Positions 28,235 to 41,757 of a DNA stretch of 64,000 nt are shown here, piece by piece. This DNA comes from an uncultured Bacteroidales bacterium. Lineage in GTDB: Bacteria > Bacteroidota > Bacteroidia > Bacteroidales > Bacteroidaceae. The notes beneath the pieces are model-generated. The model was not told the DNA's origin and ran no database searches. It saw nothing but the letters and a program-made list of their open reading frames with translations. The position numbers and the translations under genes were made by a program. The stretch spans positions 153 through 64,152 of the forward strand of contig CADCCR010000011.1 in assembly GCA_902799985.1 (NCBI GenBank), read 5' to 3'. How positions within the stretch are numbered: position 1 is the first letter of the stretch; each line of letters begins with the position of its first letter.

Positions 28235-28699
28235 GTGGCGAAAATCGAACGAACAATATATATAAATATGTTATACTATCCTCTCCTTGCCCTAATGTTC
28301 CCGTTCATGCAGGCCGACACAGCACGCGTCGACACCTCCCGGACCGACAACACCATCCGCGTCGACACCCTAAAAGAATTGGAGGTGCGTGGCGACTCAG
28401 TCCTGCGTGTCAACGAGGCGATTCGCCAAACGATAGGCAGGGAGTTGAAAAGCCGTCAGGGAACTCCCACCTTGAGCGATGTCATCGGCGGCAAGGCCAC
28501 TGACGTGATTATGCACCCCTTCGCCATAAAGGACCGCAAGCGGGAACGCAAACATGCGCGCGACCGGAAGATTCTGGAAGAGTACGAAAAGTTGGGACGC
28601 ATAAAGACCTTCGAGGAACTCCTCGACGAGGCTATCCGCCAGCAGGCCATCGATGACGGCATAGAACCGCCTACGCGCTCCGGCAAGAAAAACAAATAA
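28235..28699 (+). CDS. Hypothetical protein (start may be the Met at 28268)
   Basis: Open frame with a hydrophobic N-terminus MLYYPLLALMFPFMQA and a basic C-terminal half. I recognise no family. Confidence 0.45.
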   Translation: MAKIERTIYINMLYYPLLALMFPFMQADTARVDTSRTDNTIRVDTLKELEVRGDSVLRVNEAIRQTIGRELKSRQGTPTLSDVIGGKATDVIMHPFAIKDRKRERKHARDRKILEEYEKLGRIKTFEELLDEAIRQQAIDDGIEPPTRSGKKNK

Positions 28700-28708
28700 A
28701 CCAGTGTC

Positions 28709-29554
28709 TTGAACTTGAATAAGGTAACTCCTGCTATTCTTACGTTGCTAATCTTCCTTTTGATGCAAGGGATTGGCACAGCGGCCCTCTTTGGCATGGG
28801 CATCCTTATCTCGCCTGAATTCGCTACAGCCCTCAGCGAATATGTCAGCGGTGCGACGGACGAACTGCCATTGCTCAATGTGTTGCCCGTTTCGCTCTTC
28901 GCGTTGACGCTGATGGCTACCAACATATTGACTGTTCTTGCCTGCCGTCGCATACTGCATAACATCTGTTTCAAGTCGGCTTTCGACTATGCTTCTGTCA
29001 ACTGGCAGCCTGGCATATTGGCTTTGTCCGGTGGCATCTTGGGCGCCATTGGCATGTCGGTCCTGACCGATTCTGTCGAGATGCCCGACTCCATGCAACA
29101 GGCTTCGCTGGCTTTGTCGCGCAATGTGTGGGGCCTGCTTGCGATTGTTATCGTAGGCCCCGTCACAGAGGAACTTCTCTTTCGGGAGGCCATAGCAGGC
29201 GAGATGTTGCGCAGGGGAGCTGGTCCTTGGGTGGCGATCCTGACCTCTGCATTGGCATTCAGCATCGTGCACTTCAACTTTGCACAAGGCATCTATGCCC
29301 TTCCCCTCGGCATTCTTTTGGGAATTATCTATTTCAAGACGGGAAACATCGTGCTCTCTTCCCTGCTACACATTATTAATAATAGTATTGTCGTACTTCA
29401 ACTGTACATCGTTGGCGAAGAATTTGTCAATACTTCTTATGCGGAACTGTTTGGAGGGATGTTGATACCTTATATAATTATGACGTTTAGCATCGTGTTT
29501 TGTTGCTTTCTTATGTGTGCATTTTGGAGGCATTATGTACCATTCGCAACATAG
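28709..29554 (+). CDS. CPBP family intramembrane glutamic endopeptidase (CAAX protease-like)
   Basis: Multiple transmembrane helices with GPVTEELLFREAI, FSIVHFNF and LLHIINNS motifs. The annotated start is TTG, and an in-frame stop at 28697 excludes a longer ORF. Confidence 0.75.
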   Translation: MNLNKVTPAILTLLIFLLMQGIGTAALFGMGILISPEFATALSEYVSGATDELPLLNVLPVSLFALTLMATNILTVLACRRILHNICFKSAFDYASVNWQPGILALSGGILGAIGMSVLTDSVEMPDSMQQASLALSRNVWGLLAIVIVGPVTEELLFREAIAGEMLRRGAGPWVAILTSALAFSIVHFNFAQGIYALPLGILLGIIYFKTGNIVLSSLLHIINNSIVVLQLYIVGEEFVNTSYAELFGGMLIPYIIMTFSIVFCCFLMCAFWRHYVPFAT

Positions 29555-29680
29555 CGAACAATGGAAGTAAATTGATAAGATAGGTGGAAAATGTAGGTTA
29601 AAATTCTAAAATATGCAATAAGTTTTGTTAAAATAGCTTAAACGCCCTTCTTTCCTCATCTTTATTTCGCCGTATTGTCT

Positions 29681-29688
29681 TACCTTTG
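29681..29688 (+). promoter_or_regulatory. -7 box (TACCTTTG) upstream of the giant lipoprotein gene
   Basis: Matches TAnnTTTG and implies a 5' leader of about 105 nt. The leader contains the hairpin CACCCaaaaGGGTG. Confidence 0.45.
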
Positions 29689-29799
29689 CCAAACAATAGC
29701 ACCCAAAAGGGTGTACTATGCAGATATGAGAAAAAAGTTTAAGTAGAAAACGTATTAACTAAACTCAAACATAATTTATATAAACAAACTTATTAAAAA

Positions 29800-32700
29800 A
29801 TGAAAAAGAAACTCATTCAATCACTCACGCTGCTGTTAGTGGCAGTCAGTGTGGGAGCGTTCGTATCTTGTAAGGATACCAACGAGGATTTGTACAACGA
29901 GTATCGTACAGAGGCTGCTGGCCAGTCCGCGACTCTGCAACAGAAGCTTTCTCAGCTCGAGGGAACAATTGCAACCCTCCAGGCACAGCTGGCTGCTGTC
30001 AACTCATGCACATGTGACCCGACCAAGGTTACCACTCTTGAAGGCAAAGTGGCTGCTATCGAAGCCGCACTTGCAGGCGGTGGTGGCACAGGCACAGCTC
30101 CGGTTATCGTCGACATCATCGATGACTATATTGATGATTTGCTTGGCGGTGGCTCTGGCAGTGGTGGCTTAACCCTGCAGGACATTGTGAATATCGTTAA
30201 TAACCTTCAGGGTGACCAGGGTGATTTGTCAAAGATTTACAATACCCTTACAACTTATGGTAACGACATTACTACCATTCTGACGACCCTGAATGATCAT
30301 GGCGACAACATCCAGTTGCTCCTCACCAACCAGCAGGCTGCTCAGACATTGCTCAACAGCACTATTGCTGACCTGGCTGCCCTTCAGCAGAAGGTTAATG
30401 ACATCAAGCAGTGCAACTGTGACTTCACCACTCTGTGGAATGCCATCCATGAGCTCGAAACAGGTCTGGCTGCTGCTGAGGCAAAGGCACAGAATGCATT
30501 GGATTTGGCAACAGCTGCCGACACAAAGGCTACGAATGCTCAAAACACTGCTAATGCTGCCAATAACACAGCTAATGCTGCCAATAACACAGCTAACGAG
30601 GCCAAGCTGACTGCCGATGAAGCTAAGGCTGCTGCTGCTGCTGCAACAACAATCGCTAATGCTGCTACCGATTTGGCTCAAACAGCTGTTCAGACTGCTG
30701 CAAATGCTGAGAGCCTTGCCACGGCTGCCGGTCTGACCGCACAGGAAGCTAAGACTTTCGCTGAAACAGCTAAGACAAATGCTGAGAATGCCCTCAATAT
30801 TGCCAACAACGCAATCAGCGCTGCAGCAACAGCTCAGACTGCTGCAACAGCAGCTCTGAACCAGGCAAATGCTAACAAGGAGGCTATCGATCAGCTCAAG
30901 AATGACATCACAACCATTCAGAACACCCTCACACAGTATGGTGATCAGATTAACCTGAATACAACAAACATTCAGAAGAACGCTGATGCCATTGCTGATG
31001 CTGTCAATAAGATTCAGACTAATGCTGAGAAGATTCAGCAGAACAAGGAAGCTATCGACGCTCTGAAGACTCAGATCACAACCGTGAGCGAGACTGCAGC
31101 CAATGCTCTCCAGAAGGCAATCGACGCAGACGCAAAGGCTACTGCCAACGCTCTTGCTATCGAAAACCTGAAGCCCGCTGTCGAGGCTAACAAGACTGCT
31201 ATCGATGAGCTGAAGACAAAGACCCAGACTCTCGAGTCTACCGTTACAAATCTTCAGACTGTCGTTAACGACCTCAGCACTCAGGTGAACAACAACACTA
31301 CAGCTATCACCAACAACACCACAGCTATCACCAACCTAACAACCACCGTCAACAACCTGACAACTCAGGTTAACACAATCGAAGGTTCTGTTGATGAGCT
31401 GAAGACTACTGTTGCCGAACACACAACCAAGCTGGCAACTATGGAGGCCGAACTTGCTACTGTTAAGACAGAATGTGCTGCCAACCTTCTGACTGCAAAG
31501 CAGTATGCTGAGGCACAGGCTGAGGCTGTCAGAACTGCTCTGATGACTGAGATCAACAACCTCATTGCTCAGCTTGCAAACTACTACACAAAGGATCAGG
31601 TTTACACCAAGCAAGAAGTTGACGACCTGCTTAAGCAATTGAAGGATAACCTGAACATCACGATTAACAACAACACCGTAAGAATTGAGGTGCTTGAAGG
31701 TAAGGTTACTACCCTCGAAGGTAAGGTTGTCGATCTTCAGAGCGCTGTTGACGATCAAGGCGATAGAATCACTGCCCTCGAGACAAAGCTCAATGGCTAT
31801 GAGACATTGGTTGAGACAGTCAACGGACACACAACAAAGATTGAAAAACTCACAACCGACCTTGGTTCACTGCAAAGCATCGTAGATAACCTCTCTACTA
31901 CTGTTGGTCAAAACACTTCCGACATTGCTACAAACGCTGCCGCTATTGAGGCTATCAATGCTGCTATTGCTGCAATCAAGAGCTGCACTTGCGACCCCAA
32001 CGCTATCACAAAACTGAACGAAGACATCGCCGGCATACTGGAGCGTCTCGCTGCTGCAGAGGCAAATATTACTAAGAACGCTGGTGATATTGCCACAAAT
32101 GCTGAAGCTATTGCCGCAAACACCAAGCTCATCAACGATGTAAAGAAGGAACTGACTGACCTCATCAATGAGCAGATTGACCAGCTGAAGTCCACTCTTG
32201 AGGAGCAAATTGGTGCAGTCGACCACAAGGCTGACAGTGCACACGCCAGAATCGACGCATTGCAGTTGGCCTTTGACAACCTCAACTACATCACTCCCGA
32301 GGAGGTAGATGACAAGTTAGGTGACTTGGCTGAACTCCTCTTAGACAAGATTCATGCTGACTCTCTCGTTTCTGCCCAGACAGACGAGGACTTCAAGAAG
32401 CGTATGGATATCATTGGCGACTCCGTTGCTACTGCATTCCAGGACATCATCACCATGCAGACTACCATCGCTGCACTTGATGCTGCTACCGTCAAGAAGG
32501 ATGACTACAACGCCGACAAGGAAGAGATTCTTGGCAAGATTAGCGCTAATGAGACAGCCATCAGTGACCTGCAGGATGTCGTTGAGACCCTCAGCGACCA
32601 GCTGACCTCTCTCGAGGATAGAATAGAAGACCTGGAGGATCGCATGGATGTGGCAGAGGCTAACATCGAGCAGGCACTCGACGACATTCAGGACCTCAAG

Positions 32701-34899
32701 TCCGACGTGGCCGAAATTCAGGAGTTCCTTGCTAAGCAGGTAACAGGTATCATGATTCAAGGCACATACAATCCTGCCTTCGGTACTTTGGATCTGCCCT
32801 TCGACGTTCAGTCCAACATCCTCGTCGCTTACTATGGCAAGCCCGCCAAGGACGTTGAATTCCCCACATCGCGCACAAGTAATTATGTACGCCCAGAGGA
32901 GGCTCTCACCGAGAAGGATATGCAGATGATTAACGGCGTTGAGGTATTCGAGCACCTTGCCAACATTCCTCTCATGTTCGAGAACAACTATGCAGGTAAG
33001 GTTTACATGACCATCAACCCCAACACAGCTGATCTTTCTGGCCTGGAGCTGAGCATTGTCAATACTCAGGATACAGAGTCTCCCATCAAGCTCGAGGGTG
33101 TCAAGAAGAGCACCGAGAAGCTGAAGTTCGGCTACACTCGTGGCGAGAATGGCTTCTACGAGGCTGACGCTGTCGTTGCTCCCATCGATGTCGAGAAGGT
33201 TGAGCACATTTCCGTTGACAAGGCTGCCATCAAGGATGCCTATAAGGAGATTGCCGAGAAGCGCCTTAATGCTGACATCGAACAGGTAGCAACAGATGTC
33301 TACAAGGTAGTGAAGTCCCTGAAGCTCAACAAGAGCGGTTTGAAGTGTTCTTACACAGAGAACGGCAACACACACTCTGTCTACTCTCAGTACAACCTGG
33401 CAGCTACAGCTATCGATCCTCTCGACTTCGCTTCGTATAAGGATTGGAACTACCAGACTGTTCCTGGTTACGAGCGCGTCAACAACCTGCTCAACAGAAT
33501 TTCAAGAAAGGCAAAGGACAAGATTCATATCTTCTTCAAGGAGCTCAACGAATCTGCTTTGGTTGAGAAGGTTTGCGATCTTCAGATCAATGACATTGAG
33601 GTTCCCGACCTCTCTAACGACCTGCTGGCTAAATTCGTCCTGCACATGGATACCACCTTCGTAATGGATGGCCTCAAGTATCATCTGGATATGAAACTTG
33701 ACAAAGAAGTAACTGTCAAGTTCGACACAACGATTACAATTCCTATCAATTTGGAGGGAGTTACGGTTAACGTTCCTATTGACTATGATCAGAATGTAAA
33801 TATTGATTTGTCAACAGTCGTTGTAGAATCTCCCACAGTAGTTGTTAAGGGTTATGCTACCGGTCATGCAAATACAGGAAATTACAAGGCAGAAGTTGAT
33901 CCAATAACAGGTGACACAATAAATAAGGTTATTATTGACCCGGAAACCGGTCTGCCAGTATATGAGACAGTACTTGTTGTTCCTGTGAAGGACGATGCAG
34001 GTAATACTGTAGGTAACGCTGAAATTGATTTGAACGATGTCAATATCACTGCAGATGTTAATGCTTCTGGTACTGCAGGTACGATTAAACTCAATGGTTC
34101 TCCTGTTGCTACCATTAGCATCCATAAGACGTTCACTGGCACAGGAAATGTTCATCAGAATATGGATTACCATCTCGTAATTGAGAAGACCGTGGATATA
34201 TCGTACCAGCTTGACAAGTGGATCTACTTCGGTGATGGTGGCACAGACAAGAAGGAGTTCAAGCTTGTCTTCAGCTACGACATGCGCGACGCAGCTACGG
34301 ATCTTTGGGGACAAGCTCAGCACGCTATTGGCGACGTGAACAAGATGCTGAATGATCTCCGCGACATCGTCAGCGAGGTGAACAACGCTTTGGATAAGAT
34401 CAACAGCTACGAGGCAAGGATTGGCAATACGATTGACGAATATATTGACAGGGTTCGCAGCTACATCGACAAGATCAACAGCAAGATTGTCGGCTTCGTC
34501 AATTCTACCAACAGCCGCTTCCAGCCCTTCATGGTTGCTGCAGACAGCAAGGGTATCAAGCGTCTGAGCGGTAGTAAGAACTATCCCACTCAGTTGAGGT
34601 CGGACATCTCTCTCTATCCCACTTCTCAGACAATGGAGCTCATTGTTCCTATTGCCAGAAAGCATGTGGCTGTGACCAACGTCTTCAAGGGTAGTGCAAG
34701 TGCTCAGGGTGGCAACGCCGACTGTCTGGCTCGTCTGAAGGCTGCCAACACCGGTAAGCTCAACACTGTGCTGGATGGTAATGTCCGTCAGATTGCTCTG
34801 AATGGTTTGAAGTCTGGCTATGTATACGAGATTGCATACTCAGGCCTCGACTTCCATGGCAACATCGCTACACGCAAGTACTATGTAACTGTGAAGTAA
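29800..34899 (+). CDS. Giant (1,699 aa) coiled-coil lipoprotein, predicted to be surface-exposed
   Basis: Lipoprotein signal ...SVGAFVSC (Cys24) followed by KDTNED. Residues about 25-980 are an A/T/N/Q-rich heptad-like sequence with three CxCD motifs (C70/C72, C205/C207, C729/C731). Residues about 980-1699 are beta-rich. Confidence 0.9.
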   Translation: MKKKLIQSLTLLLVAVSVGAFVSCKDTNEDLYNEYRTEAAGQSATLQQKLSQLEGTIATLQAQLAAVNSCTCDPTKVTTLEGKVAAIEAALAGGGGTGTAPVIVDIIDDYIDDLLGGGSGSGGLTLQDIVNIVNNLQGDQGDLSKIYNTLTTYGNDITTILTTLNDHGDNIQLLLTNQQAAQTLLNSTIADLAALQQKVNDIKQCNCDFTTLWNAIHELETGLAAAEAKAQNALDLATAADTKATNAQNTANAANNTANAANNTANEAKLTADEAKAAAAAATTIANAATDLAQTAVQTAANAESLATAAGLTAQEAKTFAETAKTNAENALNIANNAISAAATAQTAATAALNQANANKEAIDQLKNDITTIQNTLTQYGDQINLNTTNIQKNADAIADAVNKIQTNAEKIQQNKEAIDALKTQITTVSETAANALQKAIDADAKATANALAIENLKPAVEANKTAIDELKTKTQTLESTVTNLQTVVNDLSTQVNNNTTAITNNTTAITNLTTTVNNLTTQVNTIEGSVDELKTTVAEHTTKLATMEAELATVKTECAANLLTAKQYAEAQAEAVRTALMTEINNLIAQLANYYTKDQVYTKQEVDDLLKQLKDNLNITINNNTVRIEVLEGKVTTLEGKVVDLQSAVDDQGDRITALETKLNGYETLVETVNGHTTKIEKLTTDLGSLQSIVDNLSTTVGQNTSDIATNAAAIEAINAAIAAIKSCTCDPNAITKLNEDIAGILERLAAAEANITKNAGDIATNAEAIAANTKLINDVKKELTDLINEQIDQLKSTLEEQIGAVDHKADSAHARIDALQLAFDNLNYITPEEVDDKLGDLAELLLDKIHADSLVSAQTDEDFKKRMDIIGDSVATAFQDIITMQTTIAALDAATVKKDDYNADKEEILGKISANETAISDLQDVVETLSDQLTSLEDRIEDLEDRMDVAEANIEQALDDIQDLKSDVAEIQEFLAKQVTGIMIQGTYNPAFGTLDLPFDVQSNILVAYYGKPAKDVEFPTSRTSNYVRPEEALTEKDMQMINGVEVFEHLANIPLMFENNYAGKVYMTINPNTADLSGLELSIVNTQDTESPIKLEGVKKSTEKLKFGYTRGENGFYEADAVVAPIDVEKVEHISVDKAAIKDAYKEIAEKRLNADIEQVATDVYKVVKSLKLNKSGLKCSYTENGNTHSVYSQYNLAATAIDPLDFASYKDWNYQTVPGYERVNNLLNRISRKAKDKIHIFFKELNESALVEKVCDLQINDIEVPDLSNDLLAKFVLHMDTTFVMDGLKYHLDMKLDKEVTVKFDTTITIPINLEGVTVNVPIDYDQNVNIDLSTVVVESPTVVVKGYATGHANTGNYKAEVDPITGDTINKVIIDPETGLPVYETVLVVPVKDDAGNTVGNAEIDLNDVNITADVNASGTAGTIKLNGSPVATISIHKTFTGTGNVHQNMDYHLVIEKTVDISYQLDKWIYFGDGGTDKKEFKLVFSYDMRDAATDLWGQAQHAIGDVNKMLNDLRDIVSEVNNALDKINSYEARIGNTIDEYIDRVRSYIDKINSKIVGFVNSTNSRFQPFMVAADSKGIKRLSGSKNYPTQLRSDISLYPTSQTMELIVPIARKHVAVTNVFKGSASAQGGNADCLARLKAANTGKLNTVLDGNVRQIALNGLKSGYVYEIAYSGLDFHGNIATRKYYVTVK

Positions 34900-34934
34900 A
34901 AACTAATTCGTCGAACCAGAAAAAGAGAACGATT

Positions 34935-36077
34935 ATGAAAATCAAGAATATTATCATGTCTGTTGCCCTGCTTGCCGGATGCATCACTGCATCCGCGCAG
35001 CAGACAACAGCTGCACCCAGCGAAGAGTTCAACCCCCACTGGTATGTTCAGGCTCAGGCAGGTGGACAGCACACTCTGGGCGAAGTATGCTTCGGCGACC
35101 TCCTTTCTGTCAATGCACAGATAGCAGGCGGCTATAACTTCACCTCTGTTTGGGGTGTTCGCCTTGCTATTGGTGCCTGGCAGAGCAAGGGTGGCACTCA
35201 TCTCGATTACTTAGGACTTGGCGACAAGACCTGGAAGTACAATTACATTGCTCCTACAGTTGACGTGGTTTGCGACCTCAGCAACTTGATTCTCGGCTAC
35301 AACCCTAAGCGCGTTTGCAACTTCGGTTTGTTGGCTGGTATCGGTGCCAACATCGGTTTCAACAACGGTGAGGCATTGGATGTAAGGAATCAGGTTATTG
35401 CAGCCAGCAACAATGTGCTCGACGAGGCCCATCTGATGTCCCTGTACTGGGATGGCACTAAGGCTCGTTTCTTGGGTAAGTTCGGCGCTTTCGTCGACTT
35501 CAACCTGAGCCGTCGCGTATCTCTCGGTCTGGAAGTGAACTGCAATCCCACCACTGACAGCTACAACTCGAAGAAGGCAGGCAATGGCGACTGGTACTTC
35601 AACGCCCTGGCCGGTGTCAAGGTAAGACTTGGCAAGGTTTCCCGCGAGGGTAAGCCTGCACCCGCTCCTGCTGTTGTAGAGAAGATTGTAGAGAAGATTG
35701 TGGAGAAGCCCGTCGAGAAGATTGTCTACAAGGAAACTCCCGCTCCGAAGCCCGAGCCTCTGCGTCGCGACATCTTCTTCAAGATCCGTGGCTCGCAGGT
35801 CAACAGGACCGAGATGCTTAAGGTAGAGGATGTAGTAGCTTACCTCAACAAGTATCCCGAAGCAAAGGTAACTGTTACCGGTTATGCAGACAAGGGTACC
35901 GGCAATCCGAAGTTGAATGTCGGCTATGCCCGCAAGCGTGCCGAGATGGTTGCCGACCTGCTGGTTAACACCTATGGTATCTCTCGCAGCCGCATCACAG
36001 TGGACAGCAAGGGTGACACCGTTCAGCCCTACGAGCAGAACGACCTGAACCGTGTCAGCATCTGTGTTGCCCAGTAA
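34935..36077 (+). CDS. OmpA family outer-membrane protein (N-terminal beta-barrel, VEKIVEK linker, OmpA-like C-terminal domain)
   Basis: Signal peptide, then alternating-hydrophobic barrel strands, then the linker PAPAPAVVEKIVEKIVEKPVEKIVYKETPAPKPEP. The C-terminus reads ...VTVTGYADKGTGNPKLNVGYARKRAEMVADLL... Confidence 0.9.
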   Translation: MKIKNIIMSVALLAGCITASAQQTTAAPSEEFNPHWYVQAQAGGQHTLGEVCFGDLLSVNAQIAGGYNFTSVWGVRLAIGAWQSKGGTHLDYLGLGDKTWKYNYIAPTVDVVCDLSNLILGYNPKRVCNFGLLAGIGANIGFNNGEALDVRNQVIAASNNVLDEAHLMSLYWDGTKARFLGKFGAFVDFNLSRRVSLGLEVNCNPTTDSYNSKKAGNGDWYFNALAGVKVRLGKVSREGKPAPAPAVVEKIVEKIVEKPVEKIVYKETPAPKPEPLRRDIFFKIRGSQVNRTEMLKVEDVVAYLNKYPEAKVTVTGYADKGTGNPKLNVGYARKRAEMVADLLVNTYGISRSRITVDSKGDTVQPYEQNDLNRVSICVAQ

Positions 36078-36106
36078 TCATTGAGTAACAGGCTAATCTA
36101 AGAGAC

Positions 36107-36147
36107 ATTCCCCCGTCATTCTGCTTCTGGCGGAGTGGCGGGGGAAT
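36107..36147 (+). terminator. Hairpin downstream of the OmpA-family gene
   Basis: ATTCCCCCG...CGGGGGAAT has a stem of about 9 bp and is followed by TTTGATT, which is only weakly T-rich. Confidence 0.4.
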
Positions 36148-36181
36148 TTGATTACTAAATCAACAGAAGCTTTTGTCTATT

Positions 36182-37381
36182 ATGAAGAGATTCTTATCAT
36201 TCGTTTTTGTTGCGTCCTTGCTGAGTGCAGGCAGTGTCCTTGCCCAGACTGGCACGGGCTTCATCGGCAACGGCTACTATCGTATCCGCAATTATGCCAC
36301 CGACCGTTACATTTATGTGACGGACAACAAGGATTATTACGATATGGCACGCGACAAGGAGGATTTTCAGGCTATACAACTTTGGAAGGATGTCACTCGC
36401 TTTGCATCCGACCCCGGCAGTGTCATCTACTTTGAGGAAGTGACACCCGACCATTTCGACCTAAGGGCTCAGGGCACCGGGGTTCATTCCTTTACTGGTT
36501 ATTATGTTGGTGTGACCAAGAGTTCCGGCACTTATATTGTTTCGGCCAGTGTGACGAAAGCTGGAATGCAGGTGACGAAGTACCTGACCGATGACGAGCA
36601 GAGTTCGTCGGACCAAGGCACGATGGGAACCCGAGGCAAGCTCAACTACCGCAAGTGGATTGTGGACAAGATAGAGACGGACCATGCAACCAACTATTTC
36701 GGCATCAAGCCATCGATAGAGGTTGGTGGCAAGTTCTATCATCCGTTCTATGCCGCTTTCCCCTTCAAGGTGGCAAGCGCAGGGATGCATGTCTACTACA
36801 TCGACGAGGTGGAGAGCAAGTATGCCGTCTTGAAGGAGATAGAGGGCGAAGTGCCGGCCAGCACGCCTGTCCTCATCGAGTGCAGTTCAGCCAACCCTTC
36901 GGAGAACCGTGTTGAGCTTCTTGCCACTTCATCCGCTAAGGTGACTGGCAACTTGCTTGGCGGTAATTATTTCTGCAATGGCAAACGCCCTCAGGAGTCG
37001 GTCGATGCTTATAAAGTCTTCGATGCAGACAAGATGCGTGTCTTCTCGGTGGTGGACGGTCAGCTTGTGCTTACGAACAATGCGCAGGACCGTCTCAACG
37101 AGATAAAGACTGTCGACTACTCCACATTATCTATGATAAAGCTCAAGTGTCTTCCTTCCAACACCAGTTATATGAAGGCGGACTCTGATACACCTGCCGA
37201 GGTGCCCGTGTTCGTCGACGGTCAGGTTCCCGACGCCATTGGCAGCATCTTGGCAGAGCAGAAGCCTACGGCCGCAGGTGTCTATTCCCTCAGCGGCACA
37301 CAGCTTAGGGCATCGAGCGATTTGCAAGGTCTGCCTGCAGGCCTGTATATCGTGAACGGTAAGAAGGTAGTCATAAAATAA
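36182..37381 (+). CDS. Secreted hypothetical protein with a T9SS-type C-terminal tail
   Basis: The ATG at 36182 gives MKRFLSFVFVASLLSAGSVLAQ. The C-terminus ...GVYSLSGTQLRASSDLQGLPAGLYIVNGKKVVIK resembles those ending at 354 and 12435. Confidence 0.8.
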   Translation: MKRFLSFVFVASLLSAGSVLAQTGTGFIGNGYYRIRNYATDRYIYVTDNKDYYDMARDKEDFQAIQLWKDVTRFASDPGSVIYFEEVTPDHFDLRAQGTGVHSFTGYYVGVTKSSGTYIVSASVTKAGMQVTKYLTDDEQSSSDQGTMGTRGKLNYRKWIVDKIETDHATNYFGIKPSIEVGGKFYHPFYAAFPFKVASAGMHVYYIDEVESKYAVLKEIEGEVPASTPVLIECSSANPSENRVELLATSSAKVTGNLLGGNYFCNGKRPQESVDAYKVFDADKMRVFSVVDGQLVLTNNAQDRLNEIKTVDYSTLSMIKLKCLPSNTSYMKADSDTPAEVPVFVDGQVPDAIGSILAEQKPTAAGVYSLSGTQLRASSDLQGLPAGLYIVNGKKVVIK

Positions 37382-37459
37382 AGTCCCATCCCGACCTCGT
37401 CCGAGGGATGAGGTGAGGGGGTGACATATACATTATATATAATATATAGAGATTCTACG

Positions 37460-38650
37460 ATGAAGGCTTTTGGAGCTTTTGCAATAGCCCTGTCTCTGAC
37501 GGCAGCGATGTCGGCCCAGGAGGGCAGTCAGTCCTTTACTTCTGTGTTGGCTCGGAAGAATATCCTGAACCACATGGACGTTGGCGTGAACGTGGGCACG
37601 ATGGGTGTCGGCGTTGATGTGGCAGTGCCTGTAGGCGACTATGTGCGCGTGCGTGCCGGCTACCACTATATGCCGCGCTTCACCATCAACTCCGACTTCC
37701 CTGTCGAGACGCGTAGCGGCAGCTTGAGCCAGTCCGACTTGAAGCGCTACATGGGCAAGATGAGCGAAGTGACCACCATCTTGGAGCAAAACGGCATCAA
37801 CCTCGACAACTATTCGAGGGAAAAGTCGCTGATAGATAAGTTCAGCGGCGTGGAGCTGAAGGACAAAGTGTCGATGGGCATGCGTCCCAGCATGCATCAG
37901 TTCAAGCTTCTGGTAGACGTTCTTCCCTTCAAGAACAATAAGCATTGGAGTCTGACGACAGGTATCTTTGTCGGTCCGGCTCAGGTGGGCGATGCCTGCA
38001 ACAAGGATCTGGAAATGCCATTGCTGCAGGCAATCAATGCCTACAACGAGCTGTACGTCATGTCCTGCACCTGGGAAATGTTAGGTGGCGGCGACGTTTA
38101 CTACAGGGGCAGGTCGCTCCACGACACCTTCTCCAAGATGGGTGTTGCCGGCTTCCCCTTGGGAACGTTCGCCAGGGACGTCACGCGTGTCGTTACCGAC
38201 GAGAATGGCGCAGAACATACGCTTGTGGCGGCGAAGGGCACTAAGGCTATCATGGTGCCTTCAGCCGACGGGACTGCGCGTGCAGAGATGGAGGTGAGCA
38301 AGGTGCGTCCCTACATCGGGTTCGGCTACAACACACATCTGTCGCGCAACAAGCGTTGGCAGTTGAATGTCGATGCCGGTGTGATGTTCCTCTGTGGAGC
38401 TCCGAAGGTGTACGTTGACAACGTCTATAGCATCGACGAGTCGCTCATCGATACCGGCAACGAGGTGTACGATATAGTCCGCCCCAACGAGGAAGGGACG
38501 GACTATGTGGTGGACACACCTTTGTCGCACATCGACCTGGTTCGCGACTTGCAGGGAATCACCGGCAAGGTGGGCGACTTGGTGGACGTTGCCTCCAAGT
38601 TCAAGGTCTATCCGAATGCGACGGTGACGTTCTCGTACAGGTTGTATTAG
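37460..38650 (+). CDS. Hypothetical outer-membrane beta-barrel-like protein
   Basis: The ATG at 37460 gives the signal peptide MKAFGAFAIALSLTAAMSAQ. The protein ends ...ATVTFSYRLY, the aromatic terminus typical of outer-membrane barrels. Confidence 0.65.
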   Translation: MKAFGAFAIALSLTAAMSAQEGSQSFTSVLARKNILNHMDVGVNVGTMGVGVDVAVPVGDYVRVRAGYHYMPRFTINSDFPVETRSGSLSQSDLKRYMGKMSEVTTILEQNGINLDNYSREKSLIDKFSGVELKDKVSMGMRPSMHQFKLLVDVLPFKNNKHWSLTTGIFVGPAQVGDACNKDLEMPLLQAINAYNELYVMSCTWEMLGGGDVYYRGRSLHDTFSKMGVAGFPLGTFARDVTRVVTDENGAEHTLVAAKGTKAIMVPSADGTARAEMEVSKVRPYIGFGYNTHLSRNKRWQLNVDAGVMFLCGAPKVYVDNVYSIDESLIDTGNEVYDIVRPNEEGTDYVVDTPLSHIDLVRDLQGITGKVGDLVDVASKFKVYPNATVTFSYRLY

Positions 38651-38659
38651 GAGCCCCTA

Positions 38660-38727
38660 AAGCCCCTCTCCAAACCTCCCCCAAAGGGGAGGCTTTTTTT
38701 GTTAGGGGAGGTTGGGATGAGGGGAGG
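38660..38727. repeat. GC-rich palindromic element (one full and one partial copy) between convergent genes
   Basis: aagcccctctccaaacctcccccaaaggggaggc, then TTTTTTT, then ggggaggttgggatgaggggagg. Confidence 0.85.
38675..38700 (+). terminator. Intrinsic terminator formed by the palindromic element
   Basis: CCTCCCC-caaa-GGGGAGG followed by cTTTTTTT, 25 nt after the stop at 38650. Confidence 0.6.
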
Positions 38728-38730
38728 ACC

Positions 38731-38835
38731 TCAGTAGCCCATGCACGAGGTGGTGCCGAGGGCGGTGAGGAAGGCTGTGAGGGCGGCAACGGCCATCTTC
38801 ACGAGCAGTTCGATAAATCTGTTCTTCTTTTTCAT
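38731..38835 (-). CDS. 34-codon ORF: signal peptide plus lipobox plus 3 residues (resembles the small ORFs I recall being labelled 'smalltalk protein' in Bacteroidales)
   Basis: Hand translation gives MKKKNRFIELLVKMAVAALTAFLTALGTTSCMGY. Its ATG overlaps the upstream TGA as ATGA (38832-38835). It is below the ORF-track cutoff. Confidence 0.55.
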   Translation of the reverse strand: MKKKNRFIELLVKMAVAALTAFLTALGTTSCMGY

Positions 38836-39320
38836 ACGTTCTTTTTGTATAGTTCAAAACCTTTGTTAATGATCTCTTCGGTCAGGAGCATCCCGCACTC
38901 CTGACGTGCCATGGCACGGACGAGTGCCGGCCAGTCATGTTCCGTGAGCCGCTGCGTGTCGCTCAGGCCAGTCCACAGGCAGACGTTGCGGATGTAGCGT
39001 TCGGTATCGTTCTCTGTGGGCGGTGCCCAGCGTCCGATGATGTCGCGGATGCAGCACAGCCCGTGCTTGTTGCGATAGGAGCGTAGGATGCAGAATGCGG
39101 CTCGGAGGCCCCATTCCATGCTCTCAAAGCGGACGAAGGCCCCTCTCCCGACCTCCCCCAAAGGGGAGGCCACATTGCTGATGAGGGGCTGCTCGCCTGG
39201 AGTTGACTTCGTCGGGCGTTTGCTACTCCCCTTGCAGAGGGAGTCAGCGGGGGTCTCTTCCCCCTTCCACTTCTGCCCTTTGACTCGGCGGATATTCAGC
39301 GGGTTGTTGTTAGAGTTCAT
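38832..39320 (-). CDS. Hypothetical protein downstream of the HU-HIG gene (family seen in phage and Bacteroidales contexts; function unknown)
   Basis: NPLNIRRVKGQKWKGE...FVRFESMEWGLRAAFCILRSYRNKHG...IRDIIGRWAPPTENDTERYIRNV. It carries an in-frame palindromic element (ASPLGEVGRGAF). Confidence 0.7.
   Translation of the reverse strand: MNSNNNPLNIRRVKGQKWKGEETPADSLCKGSSKRPTKSTPGEQPLISNVASPLGEVGRGAFVRFESMEWGLRAAFCILRSYRNKHGLCCIRDIIGRWAPPTENDTERYIRNVCLWTGLSDTQRLTEHDWPALVRAMARQECGMLLTEEIINKGFELYKKNV
39136..39170. repeat. GC-rich palindromic element in frame within CDS 38832-39320
   Basis: aaggcccctctcccgacctcccccaaaggggaggc. Confidence 0.85.
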
Positions 39321-39346
39321 AGTTCATAATTCATAGTTCATAGTTA
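39314..39346. repeat. Octamer-type repeat (TTCATAGT/TTCATAAT) spanning the start codon of CDS 38832-39320
   Basis: agttcatagttcataattcatagttcatagtta. Confidence 0.75.
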
Positions 39347-39380
39347 AGAGTTTTGCGTTTTTGTTTCCGCGGCCGTTCCC

Positions 39381-39423
39381 CGCCTCCCCTTTGGGGGAGG
39401 AGGGGTTAGGGGAGGAGAGGGGC
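39381..39423. repeat. GC-rich palindromic element between the HU-HIG gene and the downstream gene
   Basis: cgcctcccctttgggggaggaggggttaggggaggagaggggc. Confidence 0.85.
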
Positions 39424-39427
39424 ATGG

Positions 39428-39889
39428 TTACTCGAGCCCCTGGATGGTGTCCTGGTTCTTGATGACCTCGATGGCGGAGTTCTGTGCGGCACGGGTGGGC
39501 ACAAGCTGGAAGGTGGCGTAGGAGCGGAGGTCCTGGAATTCCTTGCCGGGAGTCCAGCTGACGTTCACCTCCTTGATGTTGGCAGCGGTGAAGGCATCGG
39601 CGGTCTTGGCTCCTTCGGTCTTGAGCTGTGCCTGGAAGTCGCCCAGGTCGCCGAGCTTGACGCGCTTGCCGTCGAGGATGAGTTCGCGCAGACACCCTAC
39701 GGCGATGTTGAGTACGGCGATGATGTCCCCCTTGCTGTAGACGCTGCCGTGGTTGGTGATGTGGTTGGCAAAGGCGTTGATGTCGAGTACTTCGTTCGAC
39801 TGTGCCACGCCGTAGGCCTTGGTCTCGGTGATGTCTTCCTTCTTGGTTCCGGGCTGTGCGGACATGATAGCGATGCTGTAGTTAATCAT
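39428..39889 (-). CDS. Bacteroidales-type HU-like DNA-binding protein (HU-HIG architecture)
   Basis: 153 aa with an HU-like core (...NHITNHGSVYSKGDIIAVLNIAVGCLRELILDGKRVKLGDLGDF...) and a C-terminal extension. Confidence 0.75.
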   Translation of the reverse strand: MINYSIAIMSAQPGTKKEDITETKAYGVAQSNEVLDINAFANHITNHGSVYSKGDIIAVLNIAVGCLRELILDGKRVKLGDLGDFQAQLKTEGAKTADAFTAANIKEVNVSWTPGKEFQDLRSYATFQLVPTRAAQNSAIEVIKNQDTIQGLE

Positions 39890-40064
39890 AATAGTTGTTG
39901 TTTGTAGTTAATGAATAATGAGTGATTGTTTTCAGAAGCGCTTCTACTTATATATACAGCATTTGTGTGCATTTGTCAACCCCTTGACGTAAATATTTAT
40001 TCTTGTGGCGGGTGAATTTCTTCTCCCCACATATTATAATATATACGTGCGGACGTGCGCATAA

Positions 40065-40157
40065 GGAAGCTCAGGCTTCCGGGGTAAGCGGCCCGTGCTT
40101 CCGTAATAAGCGCCCTGCGCTTCCGAGATAAGCGCCTTGCGCTTCTGAAATAAGCGC
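40065..40157. repeat. 22-bp hairpin array (about 4 units)
   Basis: ...gcttccgtaataagcgccctgcgcttccgagataagcgccttgcgcttctgaaataagcgc. Same family as 12695-12835, in reverse orientation. Confidence 0.85.
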
Positions 40158-40217
40158 GGGGAGTTTCTGCTACAAGTGCGGGAAGTGATGGATGAAGGAC
40201 TGTGTAGGAAACAAAAA

Positions 40218-40244
40218 GACCCCTCCCGTCATTTGGGAGGGGTC
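40218..40244 (-). terminator. Second hairpin plus T-run downstream of the HU gene
   Basis: GACCCCTCCC-gtcattt-GGGAGGGGTC, followed on the minus strand by TTTTTGTTTCCTACAC. The same junction sequence occurs at 25855-25871. Confidence 0.55.
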
Positions 40245-40295
40245 GCTGGAGAGGCTGTTGCTCTTCCTCGGCACAATTAGAAATAAAAAGTGCCT

Positions 40296-40328
40296 ACAAA
40301 AAGGTGCTTCCCAAGGGGGAAGTGCCTA
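40296..40328 (-). terminator. Intrinsic terminator of the HU gene
   Basis: The minus strand reads GGCACTTCCCccttGGGAAGCACC followed by TTTTT, about 20 nt after the stop. Confidence 0.65.
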
Positions 40329-40347
40329 TGAGGGTGAGTGTAGCCAG

Positions 40348-40611: not shown

Positions 40612-40680
40612 ACTCGAAATAATAAATATTGTTTGTAAATAGGTTGTTTATTCTGTGTTTATCATGCTTTTGCCTTACAA

Positions 40681-40688
40681 ATGTAGGG
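40681..40688 (-). promoter_or_regulatory. -7 box (TACATTTG on the minus strand) for the HU gene
   Basis: The plus strand reads CAAATGTA, about 70 nt upstream of the ATG at 40611. Confidence 0.4.
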
Positions 40689-40790
40689 AAACTTGTGCTA
40701 ACTACAAAGGAATTAAGCAAAAAAATGCTATAAATAGTGAAATTTTAATATGTTTGATTGTTTTTCCCCTTCTCCTACGTCTATTTTTTG

Positions 40791-40798
40791 TACCTTTG
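40791..40798 (+). promoter_or_regulatory. -7 box (TACCTTTG) for the rhomboid gene
   Basis: Matches TAnnTTTG, 34 nt upstream of the ATG at 40832. Confidence 0.5.
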
Positions 40799-40831
40799 CA
40801 GTCGAAAAAAAGAAACTACAGACTTTTCGAT

Positions 40832-41757
40832 ATGAATAACATGCCTCCTATAACGAAGAACCTGCTCATCATTAACGTTCTATGCTTTCTGGCCAGCCTG
40901 GCTTTCAGCACGCACGGCATAGACCTCGACGAGATTTTCGGTCTTCACTTTGTGCTGGCCGGCCATTTCCGTCCCTGGCAGTTCTTCACCTACATGTTCA
41001 TGCACGCCGGCTGGCAGCACCTCTTCTTCAATATGTTTGCCGTGTGGATGTTCGGACGCATCATGGAGCAGACGATGGGGCAGGGACGCTTCCTCTTCTA
41101 CTACCTGACGTGCGGACTGGGCGCCGGCGTGGCACAGGAACTGGTGCAGCTGGCAGAGTACTGGTACTACGGCTTCGGCAGCTTCGAGCAAGTGTCGCTC
41201 GGCGGCACGCTCGTCCCCATGGCCGACTATCTGGACCGCTGGAACACCGTCGGAGCCTCGGGTGCCGTCTATGGCATCCTGCTCTCCTTCGGCATGACGT
41301 TCCCCGAGGAGTGCCCATCAAGGCCAAGTACTTCGTCATGGGCTATGCCGTCATCGAGCTTCTCTCGGCGCTCTCGCAGAAGGGCGACGGCGTGGCACAC
41401 ATGGCTCACCTGGGCGGCATGCTCGTGGGCTTCCTGCTACTCCTCTACTGGCGCGGCGGAGGCGGCAAGAGCGGAGGCGGCGGCTACCGGAACTACGGGC
41501 GTGACGACAGCTCGTGGGACGGCTTCCGCAGCTGGTTCACCTCGCTGGGCAGCAGACTCTCCGCCTTGTGGAAGAAGAAGGAGCCGCACATCGACGTCAC
41601 CTACGGCGGGCAGTACAGCCGCGAGACGGCCTATCGCCAACAGAAGAAACAAGAGGAAGAGGAACTCAACCGCATCCTGGACAAGATAAAGAAGAGCGGC
41701 TACAGTCAGCTCACCGACGAGGAGAAGCGCCGCCTCTTCGACATGAGCAAGAAGTAA
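40832..41757 (+). pseudogene. Rhomboid family intramembrane serine protease, frameshifted near 41305-41312
   Basis: Frame A runs from MNNMPPITKNLL... to ...GASGAVYGILLSFGMTFPEE, which includes the catalytic Ser. Frame B continues VPIKAKYFVMGYAVIELL...AHLGGMLVGF, which includes the catalytic His, to the stop at 41757. Confidence 0.75.

Follow-up and report, generated by a model that had tools for sequence, protein, structure and literature searches.

A low-GC gene block in an uncultured Bacteroidales bacterium is probably a strongly expressed, fast-diverging cell-surface cassette and not a foreign island

Does a block of low GC content in the chromosome of an uncultured bacterium mark DNA imported from elsewhere, or does it mark genes selected for heavy translation? 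We examined this question for positions 28235–38650 of a 64,000-nucleotide stretch of an uncultured Bacteroidales bacterium (family Bacteroidaceae; GenBank assembly GCA_902799985.1, contig CADCCR010000011.1), the whole of which is called the window below. The block encodes a CPBP-family protease, a giant lipoprotein, an OmpA-family protein and two further proteins with signal peptides, designated P5 and P6. An initial annotation had offered two readings of its composition, a horizontally acquired island or very high expression. The answer that we favor, with moderate confidence, is a cell-surface cassette that is expressed strongly and diverges fast, and not a foreign low-GC island. The source genome is a 3.05-Mb metagenome-assembled genome (215 contigs, 79% complete), and the window lies on its contig C11.

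The GC drop first seen by eye is borne out by measurement. The 28235–38650 interval has 49.7% GC and its CPBP-to-OmpA stretch 48.3%, compared to 54.6% for the genome (10-kb windows average 54.9%, sd 2.2) and 58–61% for the flanking genes; 10-kb windows drawn across the block had 49.3–50.4% GC and ranked about 17th lowest of 1,364, i.e., within the lowest 1–2%. The minima fall where the initial annotation had placed them, in the CPBP gene and in the 3' third of the giant gene: 500-bp windows dropped to 37–39% at 29250–29999, made up of the 3' end of the CPBP gene (39.8%) plus the 245-bp spacer between it and the giant gene (29555–29799, 29.0%), and to 41% at 33500–34250. The lowest 10-kb windows of the genome start at 24–37 kb on contig C8, where they adjoin or overlap the ribosomal-protein operon (C8 ~27.7–42.4 kb). 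The genes and gene parts on which the argument turns are the following.

28709–29554, plus strand: CPBP/Rce1-like intramembrane glutamic protease (PF02517)
29800–34899, plus strand: giant lipoprotein gene, 1,699 aa (open reading frame; codon rank 9 of 1,552)
29800–29892, plus strand: signal peptide, lipobox Cys24 and export-signal-like C-K-D-T-N-E-D of the giant protein (homologue alignment)
29893–32739, plus strand: segmented coiled-coil rod, aa 32–980 (heptad periodicity, coiled-coil family matches)
32740–34899, plus strand: conserved globular C-terminal region, aa 981–1699 (AlphaFold2 [AF2] model)
33750–34250, plus strand: hypervariable, lowest-GC segment, aa ~1318–1484 (nucleotide identity, GC)
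34935–36077, plus strand: OmpA-family protein with barrel, (VEKI)n/Pro-rich linker and OmpA_C domain (PF00691, PF13505)
36182–37381, plus strand: P5, secreted beta-trefoil (ricin-B-like) lectin-type protein (AF2 model and structure search)
37460–38650, plus strand: P6, signal-peptide protein ending ...VTFSYRLY (conserved C-terminal beta-signal)

The earlier gene calls were confirmed in part by profiles and motifs (PF02517 for CPBP, a lipobox on the giant reading frame, PF00691 in OmpA, and two more signal-peptide genes). The lipoprotein, first taken to be about 1,000 residues long, has 1,699 (a rod of ~950 and a globular C-terminal region of ~720).

Codon usage carries the main finding. We ranked 1,552 open reading frames by a per-codon log-likelihood score comparing the ribosomal operon with bulk genes, and used the 227 genes with a third-position GC content (GC3) below 0.65 as a comparison set, to separate the signal from plain AT-richness. 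GC3 was 0.54 for the giant gene, 0.58 for CPBP, 0.63 for both OmpA and P5, and 0.73 for P6; the genome median is 0.69, the flanking genes have 0.75–0.84 and the ribosomal genes mostly 0.43–0.61. The giant gene ranked 9th of 1,552 for ribosomal-like usage (top 0.5%) and OmpA 13th (top 0.8%), and among the 227 low-GC3 genes they were 3rd and 4th closest to ribosomal usage. Outside its training set the score placed L1 in the top 0.3%, HU in the top 1.4%, SecDF in the top 9.3% and rpoC in the top 9.5%, as one would expect of a valid score. As in the ribosomal genes, the giant and OmpA genes prefer T-ending Ala, Gly, Thr, Val and Ser codons (giant gene shares: GCT.57, GGT.51, ACT.30, GTT.40, TCT.31), keep TTC, AAG and CAG (.95,.92 and.84 in the giant gene) and avoid NCG, GGG, CGA/CGG and ATA. 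The initial annotation had remarked on T-ending codons in the HU, OmpA and secDF genes; this agrees with the four-fold T codons favored in the giant and OmpA genes, with GGT in SecDF, and with the ranks of HU and SecDF given above. Non-optimal A/T codons were fewest in the giant (.11) and OmpA (.07) genes, compared to a median of.28 for the 227 low-GC3 genes. By a Karlin-type criterion for predicted high expression, also computed from codon usage, both genes qualify (giant: B 0.20 against ribosomal-protein genes and 0.46 against bulk genes; OmpA: 0.20 and 0.38), and P5, P6 and CPBP do not. The four quarters of the giant gene gave similar ribosomal-like scores; the globular half is as biased as the rod.

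The same trend is seen elsewhere: across nearly all of the relatives that we examined, GC3 is lower and usage more ribosomal-like in the giant and OmpA genes than in their neighbors, whatever the background GC. The low GC of these two genes is thus mainly a ribosomal-type choice at third positions, that is, translational selection, and the ribosomal-like rank together with the avoidance of generic A/T codons lets high expression explain most of the composition. That both genes are highly expressed, the second of the two readings first offered, is strongly supported by their codon usage. Three further sources account for the residual dips, namely the promoter spacer and the CPBP allele, both AT-rich, and the hypervariable segment within the giant gene.

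The giant, OmpA, P5 and P6 genes form a conserved unit, and this core sits at different places in different species. The order giant–OmpA–P5, with P6 nearby, was invariant in eight further genomes of the genus and in at least six unrelated contexts. Within the genus, all eight genomes with the giant gene also had P5 and P6, whereas about 13 others lacked all three. In a wider set of 12 loci, drawn from seven further genera plus two more members of the genus, OmpA lay between the giant gene and P5 in 10 and P6 was nearby in 11. The C-terminal region of the giant protein was found in 45 of 301 genomes of the family, representing 9 of its 35 genera, with no homologue in the other 26; giant, P5 and P6 were all missing from 16 genomes of other families. 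The hosts are uncultured ruminant-gut genomes assigned to Bacteroidaceae/Prevotellaceae. The suggested pairing of lipoprotein with OmpA is therefore well supported in the functional sense, by a gene order kept in at least eight genera. In the window, OmpA starts 35 nt 3' of the giant gene without a hairpin in between, and hairpins follow OmpA, P5 and P6, all as first described; this spacing suggests that giant and OmpA are probably co-transcribed.

We compared the locus with that of the five nearest relatives, namely UBA4336 (locus L049), an ENA assembly (L051), and the species G007, G011 and G016. The arrangement from rotamase to SecDF was complete in all five, and flanking proteins were 76–94% identical to those of G007, G011 and G016. 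Identity to the same three species was far lower within the cassette: 33–36% for giant, 44–51% for P6, 53–56% for CPBP, 57% for P5 and 64–65% for OmpA. Synonymous divergence (dS) from L049 was 0.18–0.37 for the flanks (IMPDH, Fer4, AKR, GH92, orf162, HU-HIG, HU, EEP) compared to 0.90 for CPBP, 0.87 for giant, 0.60 for OmpA, 0.78 for P5 and 0.57 for P6, so that from CPBP to P6 it is 2–3 times that of the flanks when measured against the nearest relatives. Nucleotide identity to L049 fell from about 0.9 to 0.7–0.8 right after orf154, reached a trough of 0.53–0.61 at 33751–34250, and returned to 0.88–0.93 beyond 38500. Between L049 and L051, the cassette was no more diverged than the flanks. This pair led us to reject a locally raised mutation rate: the excess dS arose in one lineage and is not inherent to the locus. 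Either recombination put a divergent allele in place of the resident one, or the cassette stayed outside gene flow that made its flanks uniform. From CPBP to P6 the history is deeper than that of the flanks, so that alleles are swapped or kept through recombination. The presence/absence polymorphism that had been proposed as a check was found in species G004, where GH92, orf154, HU, rhomboid, EEP and SecDF are contiguous and the 11.6 kb corresponding to ~28700–40340 is absent from that site; G004 carries its giant-OmpA pair on another contig.

As a separate observation, the L049–L051 comparison is itself a mosaic, with dS of 0.16–0.24 for the left flank (Fer4 to GH92) and 0.00–0.14 for the cassette together with the right flank. 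Tracts of recombination a few kb long thus seem to be common in that lineage.

The giant protein begins with a lipobox (...GAFVSC, followed by KDTNED) in which S-C-K-D-T is nearly invariant among 35 homologues, and its N-terminus, MKKKLIQ...FVSC followed by KDTNEDLYNE, hardly varies within the family. In Bacteroidetes, the lipoprotein export signal (LES) has been described as K-(D/E)2 or SDDDD (PMC5080379); the C-K-D-T-N-E-D of the giant protein resembles it with a partial fit, one acidic residue standing right after K and two more at +6/+7. The rod (aa 32–980) shows heptad periodicity in 56% of windows, has only five prolines, and gave profile matches to coiled-coil families only. Three conserved CxC motifs occur within it (aa 70/72, 205/207 and 729/731), its coding stretch holds 21-bp repeats, and its length differs among homologues. 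The C-terminal region (aa 981–1699) was modelled at pLDDT 65 overall and about 90 for the end domains, as sandwiches of Ig/FN3 type and a helix of 70 residues, with a hypervariable middle that is disordered. Structure search with this model gave generic FN3/Ig matches only (E ≥ 0.01), and sequence and profile searches gave no Pfam relative and no informative PDB relative. The hypervariable segment has 53–61% nucleotide identity to L049, compared to 77–90% on both sides; it is unalignable in distant homologues and was modelled with AF2 confidence below 50. In public data the C-terminal region forms 905 clusters at 50% identity, all unnamed; it is always C-terminal, in proteins of ~700–1,870 aa, and matches to it are usually split around the hypervariable insert.

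The OmpA partner matched PF00691 at 44.5 bits (Pfam cut-off 27.2), which by family is a peptidoglycan-binding domain, and its N-terminal part matched OMP_b-brl (PF13505) at 28.2 bits, just under the cut-off of 28.7, as a barrel of the 8-strand type. This copy is the most codon-optimised of four paralogues. We rejected its assignment to TpgA, given that the match to NF047726 is confined to the OmpA_C domain (31 bits, cut-off 350); we also rejected a lipoprotein assignment, the Cys of its 'LLAGC' being unconserved and all orthologues sharing an ASAQ signal-peptidase I site. The (VEKI)n linker is encoded by a 12-bp tandem repeat of 4.3 copies (35674–35725); most orthologues share the linker motif VEKIVEKPVEKIVYKE, which may vary in length.

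P5 was modelled at pLDDT 79 and matched beta-trefoil structures in Foldseek with probability 1.0 (3pg0, 5xg5, 6lf1; target-normalised TM 0.53–0.60). RicinB_lectin_2 was matched weakly, below its cut-off, by 15 of 31 homologues (best E = 0.012). On this model P5 appears to be lectin-like and would bind glycan. It had been called cargo of the type IX secretion system (T9SS), which the tail profiles did not sustain: the window protein had no match at E ≤ 5 to PF18962 or at E ≤ 1 to TIGR04183. Its tail of ~38 residues resembles the end of a T9SS sorting domain, TIGR04183 weakly matches 5 of the 31 homologues (best E = 0.0057), and the T9SS machinery is present in the genome (SprA on contig C64, E = 2e-218). 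P6 is a probable outer-membrane beta-barrel, judged by an aromatic C-terminal beta-signal, ...SYRL(F/Y), kept in 30 homologues. The barrel call made initially is plausible to that extent; as to proof, the sole profile match is a CarO barrel hairpin at E = 0.05. Pfam had no match to P5 or P6, and sequence and profile searches of PDB returned nothing useful for either one besides that hairpin. At 90% clustering, public data hold 455 relatives of P5 and 360 of P6, both families unnamed. In two species a P5-like domain was seen in a protein of ~1,015–1,040 aa instead of 400 aa (L020:3890-6937 in G015; G022:C43:216650-217432).

We propose that the giant lipoprotein is flipped to the cell surface, where it would form fibres or a coat reaching up to ~100 nm. 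The OmpA barrel would hold the base of the fibre in the outer membrane and tie it to the peptidoglycan cell wall, and P5 may bind glycan on or near the fibre. Physical contact between lipoprotein and OmpA, and an envelope-spanning geometry, form part of this inference. The variability would then reflect selection for diversity, by phage or host, acting on a structure that is abundant and exposed.

A periplasmic placement is the alternative that survives best, although we consider it unlikely. In it, lipoprotein and OmpA would form a coiled-coil layer or ruler between outer membrane and peptidoglycan, as a giant analogue of Lpp/OmpA or SlpA/OmpM. Coiled-coil lipoproteins and coiled-coil connectors of outer membrane and wall are known (PMC8824477, PMC9388160, PMC10628300), the OmpA partner has a peptidoglycan-binding domain, and the export signal is imperfect. 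A rod of ~950 residues is, however, several times longer than the periplasm is wide. The extreme variability in sequence and length, the hypervariable insert and the exchange of cassettes are typical of exposed antigens and not of scaffolds inside the envelope; the association with a lectin-like secreted protein also speaks against a periplasmic scaffold, as does the lack of the module from most genomes of the genus, by which it is not a core envelope part.

We give a slightly lower chance to the classical island, imported from a lower-GC donor and still bearing the composition of that donor. The separate and deeper history that an island implies was found, in the 2–3-fold excess of cassette dS and in the empty site of G004; the module is patchy within the family and occupies at least six genus contexts, and the CPBP allele, AT-rich at three codon positions, fits neither the bulk nor the ribosomal codon set. 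A composition foreign to the host did not hold up. The giant and OmpA genes use the ribosomal-protein codon dialect of their host and not generic AT-rich codons, which excludes a compositionally foreign origin for these two genes. P6 is typical in composition. Orthologous blocks are equally GC-depressed in every relative at any background GC, so that the block, which might have proved both syntenic and compositionally typical in its relatives, is syntenic in the five nearest species but atypical in all five. A tRNA search of 20–46 kb found none, and the neighboring genes include no integrase or transposase and are without a flanking direct repeat.

Least probable is that low GC is an artefact of amino-acid composition, arising from an Ala/Thr/Asn/Lys/Ile-rich coiled coil and hydrophobic membrane segments: first- and second-position GC of the giant gene (0.54 and 0.36) each lie ~0.04 below the genome means (0.585 and 0.40) and the 3' end of CPBP encodes Ile/Phe/Tyr/Asn-rich membrane helices, but ~60% of the giant gene's GC deficit is at third positions (0.54 vs a mean of 0.67 and median of 0.69), its globular half is as biased as its rod, OmpA has normal first and second positions with low GC3, and CPBP orthologues with nearly the same residues have much higher GC3, so that amino-acid composition accounts for a minor share of the low GC and this explanation is largely refuted.

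Several points weigh against the surface cassette that we prefer. The raised dS could come from gene flow homogenising the flanks rather than from the cassette. The case for high expression and co-transcription is built from codon usage, the distance between genes and a promoter match. For ribosomal-like usage P5 stands in the top 9.7% and P6 in the top 32%, neither being codon-optimised, so the four genes may be unequal in expression. The partial fit to the LES leaves room for a periplasmic orientation of the lipoprotein, the fold of its C-terminal region is moderately confident and without an informative structural relative, and two of the 12 wider loci have no OmpA between the giant gene and P5.

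A bolder version of the surface cassette, which we put forward tentatively and would not yet expect to hold in full, is that in several Bacteroidaceae genera, uncultured and from the ruminant gut, the module forms the main coat of the cell surface. This would be a new architecture: a lipid-anchored coiled-coil fibre of ~100 nm with CxC knots and a hypervariable head, a wall-rooting OmpA and a beta-trefoil lectin, with exchange of cassettes between species driven by phage or host recognition.

The remaining features lie at the junctions of the cassette and in its spacers.

28235–28699, plus strand: orf154, conserved hypothetical gene of the left flank, beside GH92 in all relatives including the empty site of G004
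28700–28708, no strand: left junction, an indel hot spot with a 522-bp gap in the L049 alignment
29597–29643, plus strand: two GTTAAAAT-type boxes, conserved in six species
29681–29688, plus strand: Bacteroidetes-type -7 promoter box TAcCTTTG (consensus TAnnTTTG)
29700–29713, plus strand: small 5'-UTR hairpin CACCC-AAAA-GGGTG, partly conserved in relatives
36110–36144, plus strand: GC-rich hairpin 3' of the OmpA gene (read from the sequence)
38675–38702, plus strand: intrinsic terminator CCTCCCC-AAAG-GGGAGG plus T run, at the right end of the high-dS cassette
38731–39889, minus strand: smalltalk, orf162 and HU-HIG trio, within the segment missing from G004

At the left end, orf154 is 85–87% identical to its counterparts in the nearest relatives; it had been counted in the block and belongs instead to the conserved flank, outside the cassette. 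Between orf154 and CPBP, a 149-aa gene of the nucleoside/cytidine-deaminase family is present in L049, L051 and G007 (L049:8470-8919; L051:8469-8918; L011:2471-2917), persists only as a fragment in G011, and is missing from both the window and G016; other matches to it in the source genome have 32–38% identity only. The CPBP protein matched PF02517 at 71.2 bits (cut-off 22.4; E = 9e-20), and its motifs EELLFR, FSIVH and HIINN (EExxxR, FxxxH, HxxxN) are intact in the translation. We rejected CPBP as a member of the conserved module, since outside the nearest clade the two are not linked. Its allele here has GC3 of 0.64 in the 5' part and 0.47 in the 3' part, vs 0.77 and 0.66 in the nearest relative; compared to its orthologues it has more AT at each of the three codon positions, and its codon usage is atypical for both the bulk and the ribosomal set (B 0.47 and 0.44).

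Within the spacer preceding the giant gene, TA.CTTTG of the -7 box was invariant in six species. The GTTAAAAT-type boxes stand ~40–85 nt 5' of it and may be a regulator site. Phase variation was considered and rejected: the search for an invertible promoter at the locus gave only a 14-nt imperfect inverted repeat near the promoter, which is unconserved, and neither the Bt1927-type motif GTTAC-N7-GTAAC nor a recombinase. An Rfam search of 27.5–41 kb gave no match. At the right end, the trio of smalltalk (DUF6486), orf162 and HU-HIG has flank-like dS (0.27–0.29), and its history thus differs from that of the adjacent cassette. Beyond the trio, a rhomboid/DUF6576 gene is split over two frames (40655–41757) where L049 and L051 have an intact gene of 316 aa, which fits a frameshift or an assembly error in the source genome.

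The other top-ranking ribosomal-like genes of the source genome (G000) that are not ribosomal encode very large, mostly unannotated proteins of surface type, at C68:1005-5480, C68:9458-13123, C3:22829-27925, C65:7174-9384, C145:9924-12803 and C4:6484-10794. Their domains include F5/8 type C, Laminin_G_3, Big_2, BACON and PCMD/calycin-like, and a dockerin domain is found in one protein of 1,698 aa. Other low-GC windows of the genome fall on genes of this kind. Low GC in this genome marks translationally selected genes, and composition alone is therefore unusable for calling islands in it.

Prevotella-like bacteria count among the most abundant degraders of fibre in the rumen, and to our knowledge hardly anything has been described of their cell surfaces. 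In this genome, the non-ribosomal gene with the best codon optimisation falls within an unnamed family of ~900 clusters at 50% identity, and its companions (OmpA, the lectin-like protein and the probable barrel) are equally uncharacterised; apart from OmpA, no core protein falls in a named family. Searches of the literature gave no paper on the giant-OmpA-P5-P6 module. If the module is truly the main surface structure, phages and host antibodies would probably target it, and it would probably mediate attachment.

Compared by architecture and not by sequence, the closest analogue appears to be the S-layer pair of B. thetaiotaomicron, in which Bt1927 is a surface lipoprotein and the adjacent gene encodes an 8-strand barrel, Bt1926 (PMC4611039, PMC12578637). 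In both cases a large lipoprotein of a Bacteroidaceae member, at the surface in Bt1927 and predicted to be so here, is encoded directly beside a small beta-barrel thought to anchor it, and the coat would be non-essential, patchily distributed and tied to phage and host defence. The giant protein differs in having 1,699 aa that are mostly coiled-coil rod, its barrel partner adds a peptidoglycan-binding OmpA_C domain, and the module has two more conserved genes, P5 and P6. Also unlike that pair, the locus here showed no invertible promoter, repeat or recombinase, and codon usage predicts strong constitutive expression.

The Acinetobacter AtaA fibre is a trimeric autotransporter with a barrel of its own, and its operon partner TpgA is an OmpA-like peptidoglycan anchor. 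There too the gene of a fibrous surface protein is followed immediately by a gene with an OmpA_C domain, and TpgA ties the base of the fibre to the wall; the fibre proposed here would be lipid-anchored. The streptococcal M protein and the Clostridioides difficile S-layer cassette are hypervariable and highly expressed, Gram-positive and wall-anchored. They resemble the present cassette as abundant exposed proteins (the M protein being a coiled-coil fibril) with a hypervariable distal part, whose alleles are much older than the flanking genome and are swapped by recombination; there is no relation in sequence, and the anchor here would be a lipid plus an outer-membrane barrel. Finally, Deinococcus SlpA and the OmpM of diderm Firmicutes carry a coiled coil, an outer-membrane barrel and a peptidoglycan-binding module in one polypeptide (PMC9388160, PMC10628300). 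The likeness is that of abundant envelope proteins combining a long coiled coil, a barrel and a peptidoglycan-binding module; in SlpA and OmpM, however, the coiled coil spans the periplasm, whereas here the parts are distributed over two proteins, the lipoprotein and OmpA, and the length of the rod far exceeds that span.

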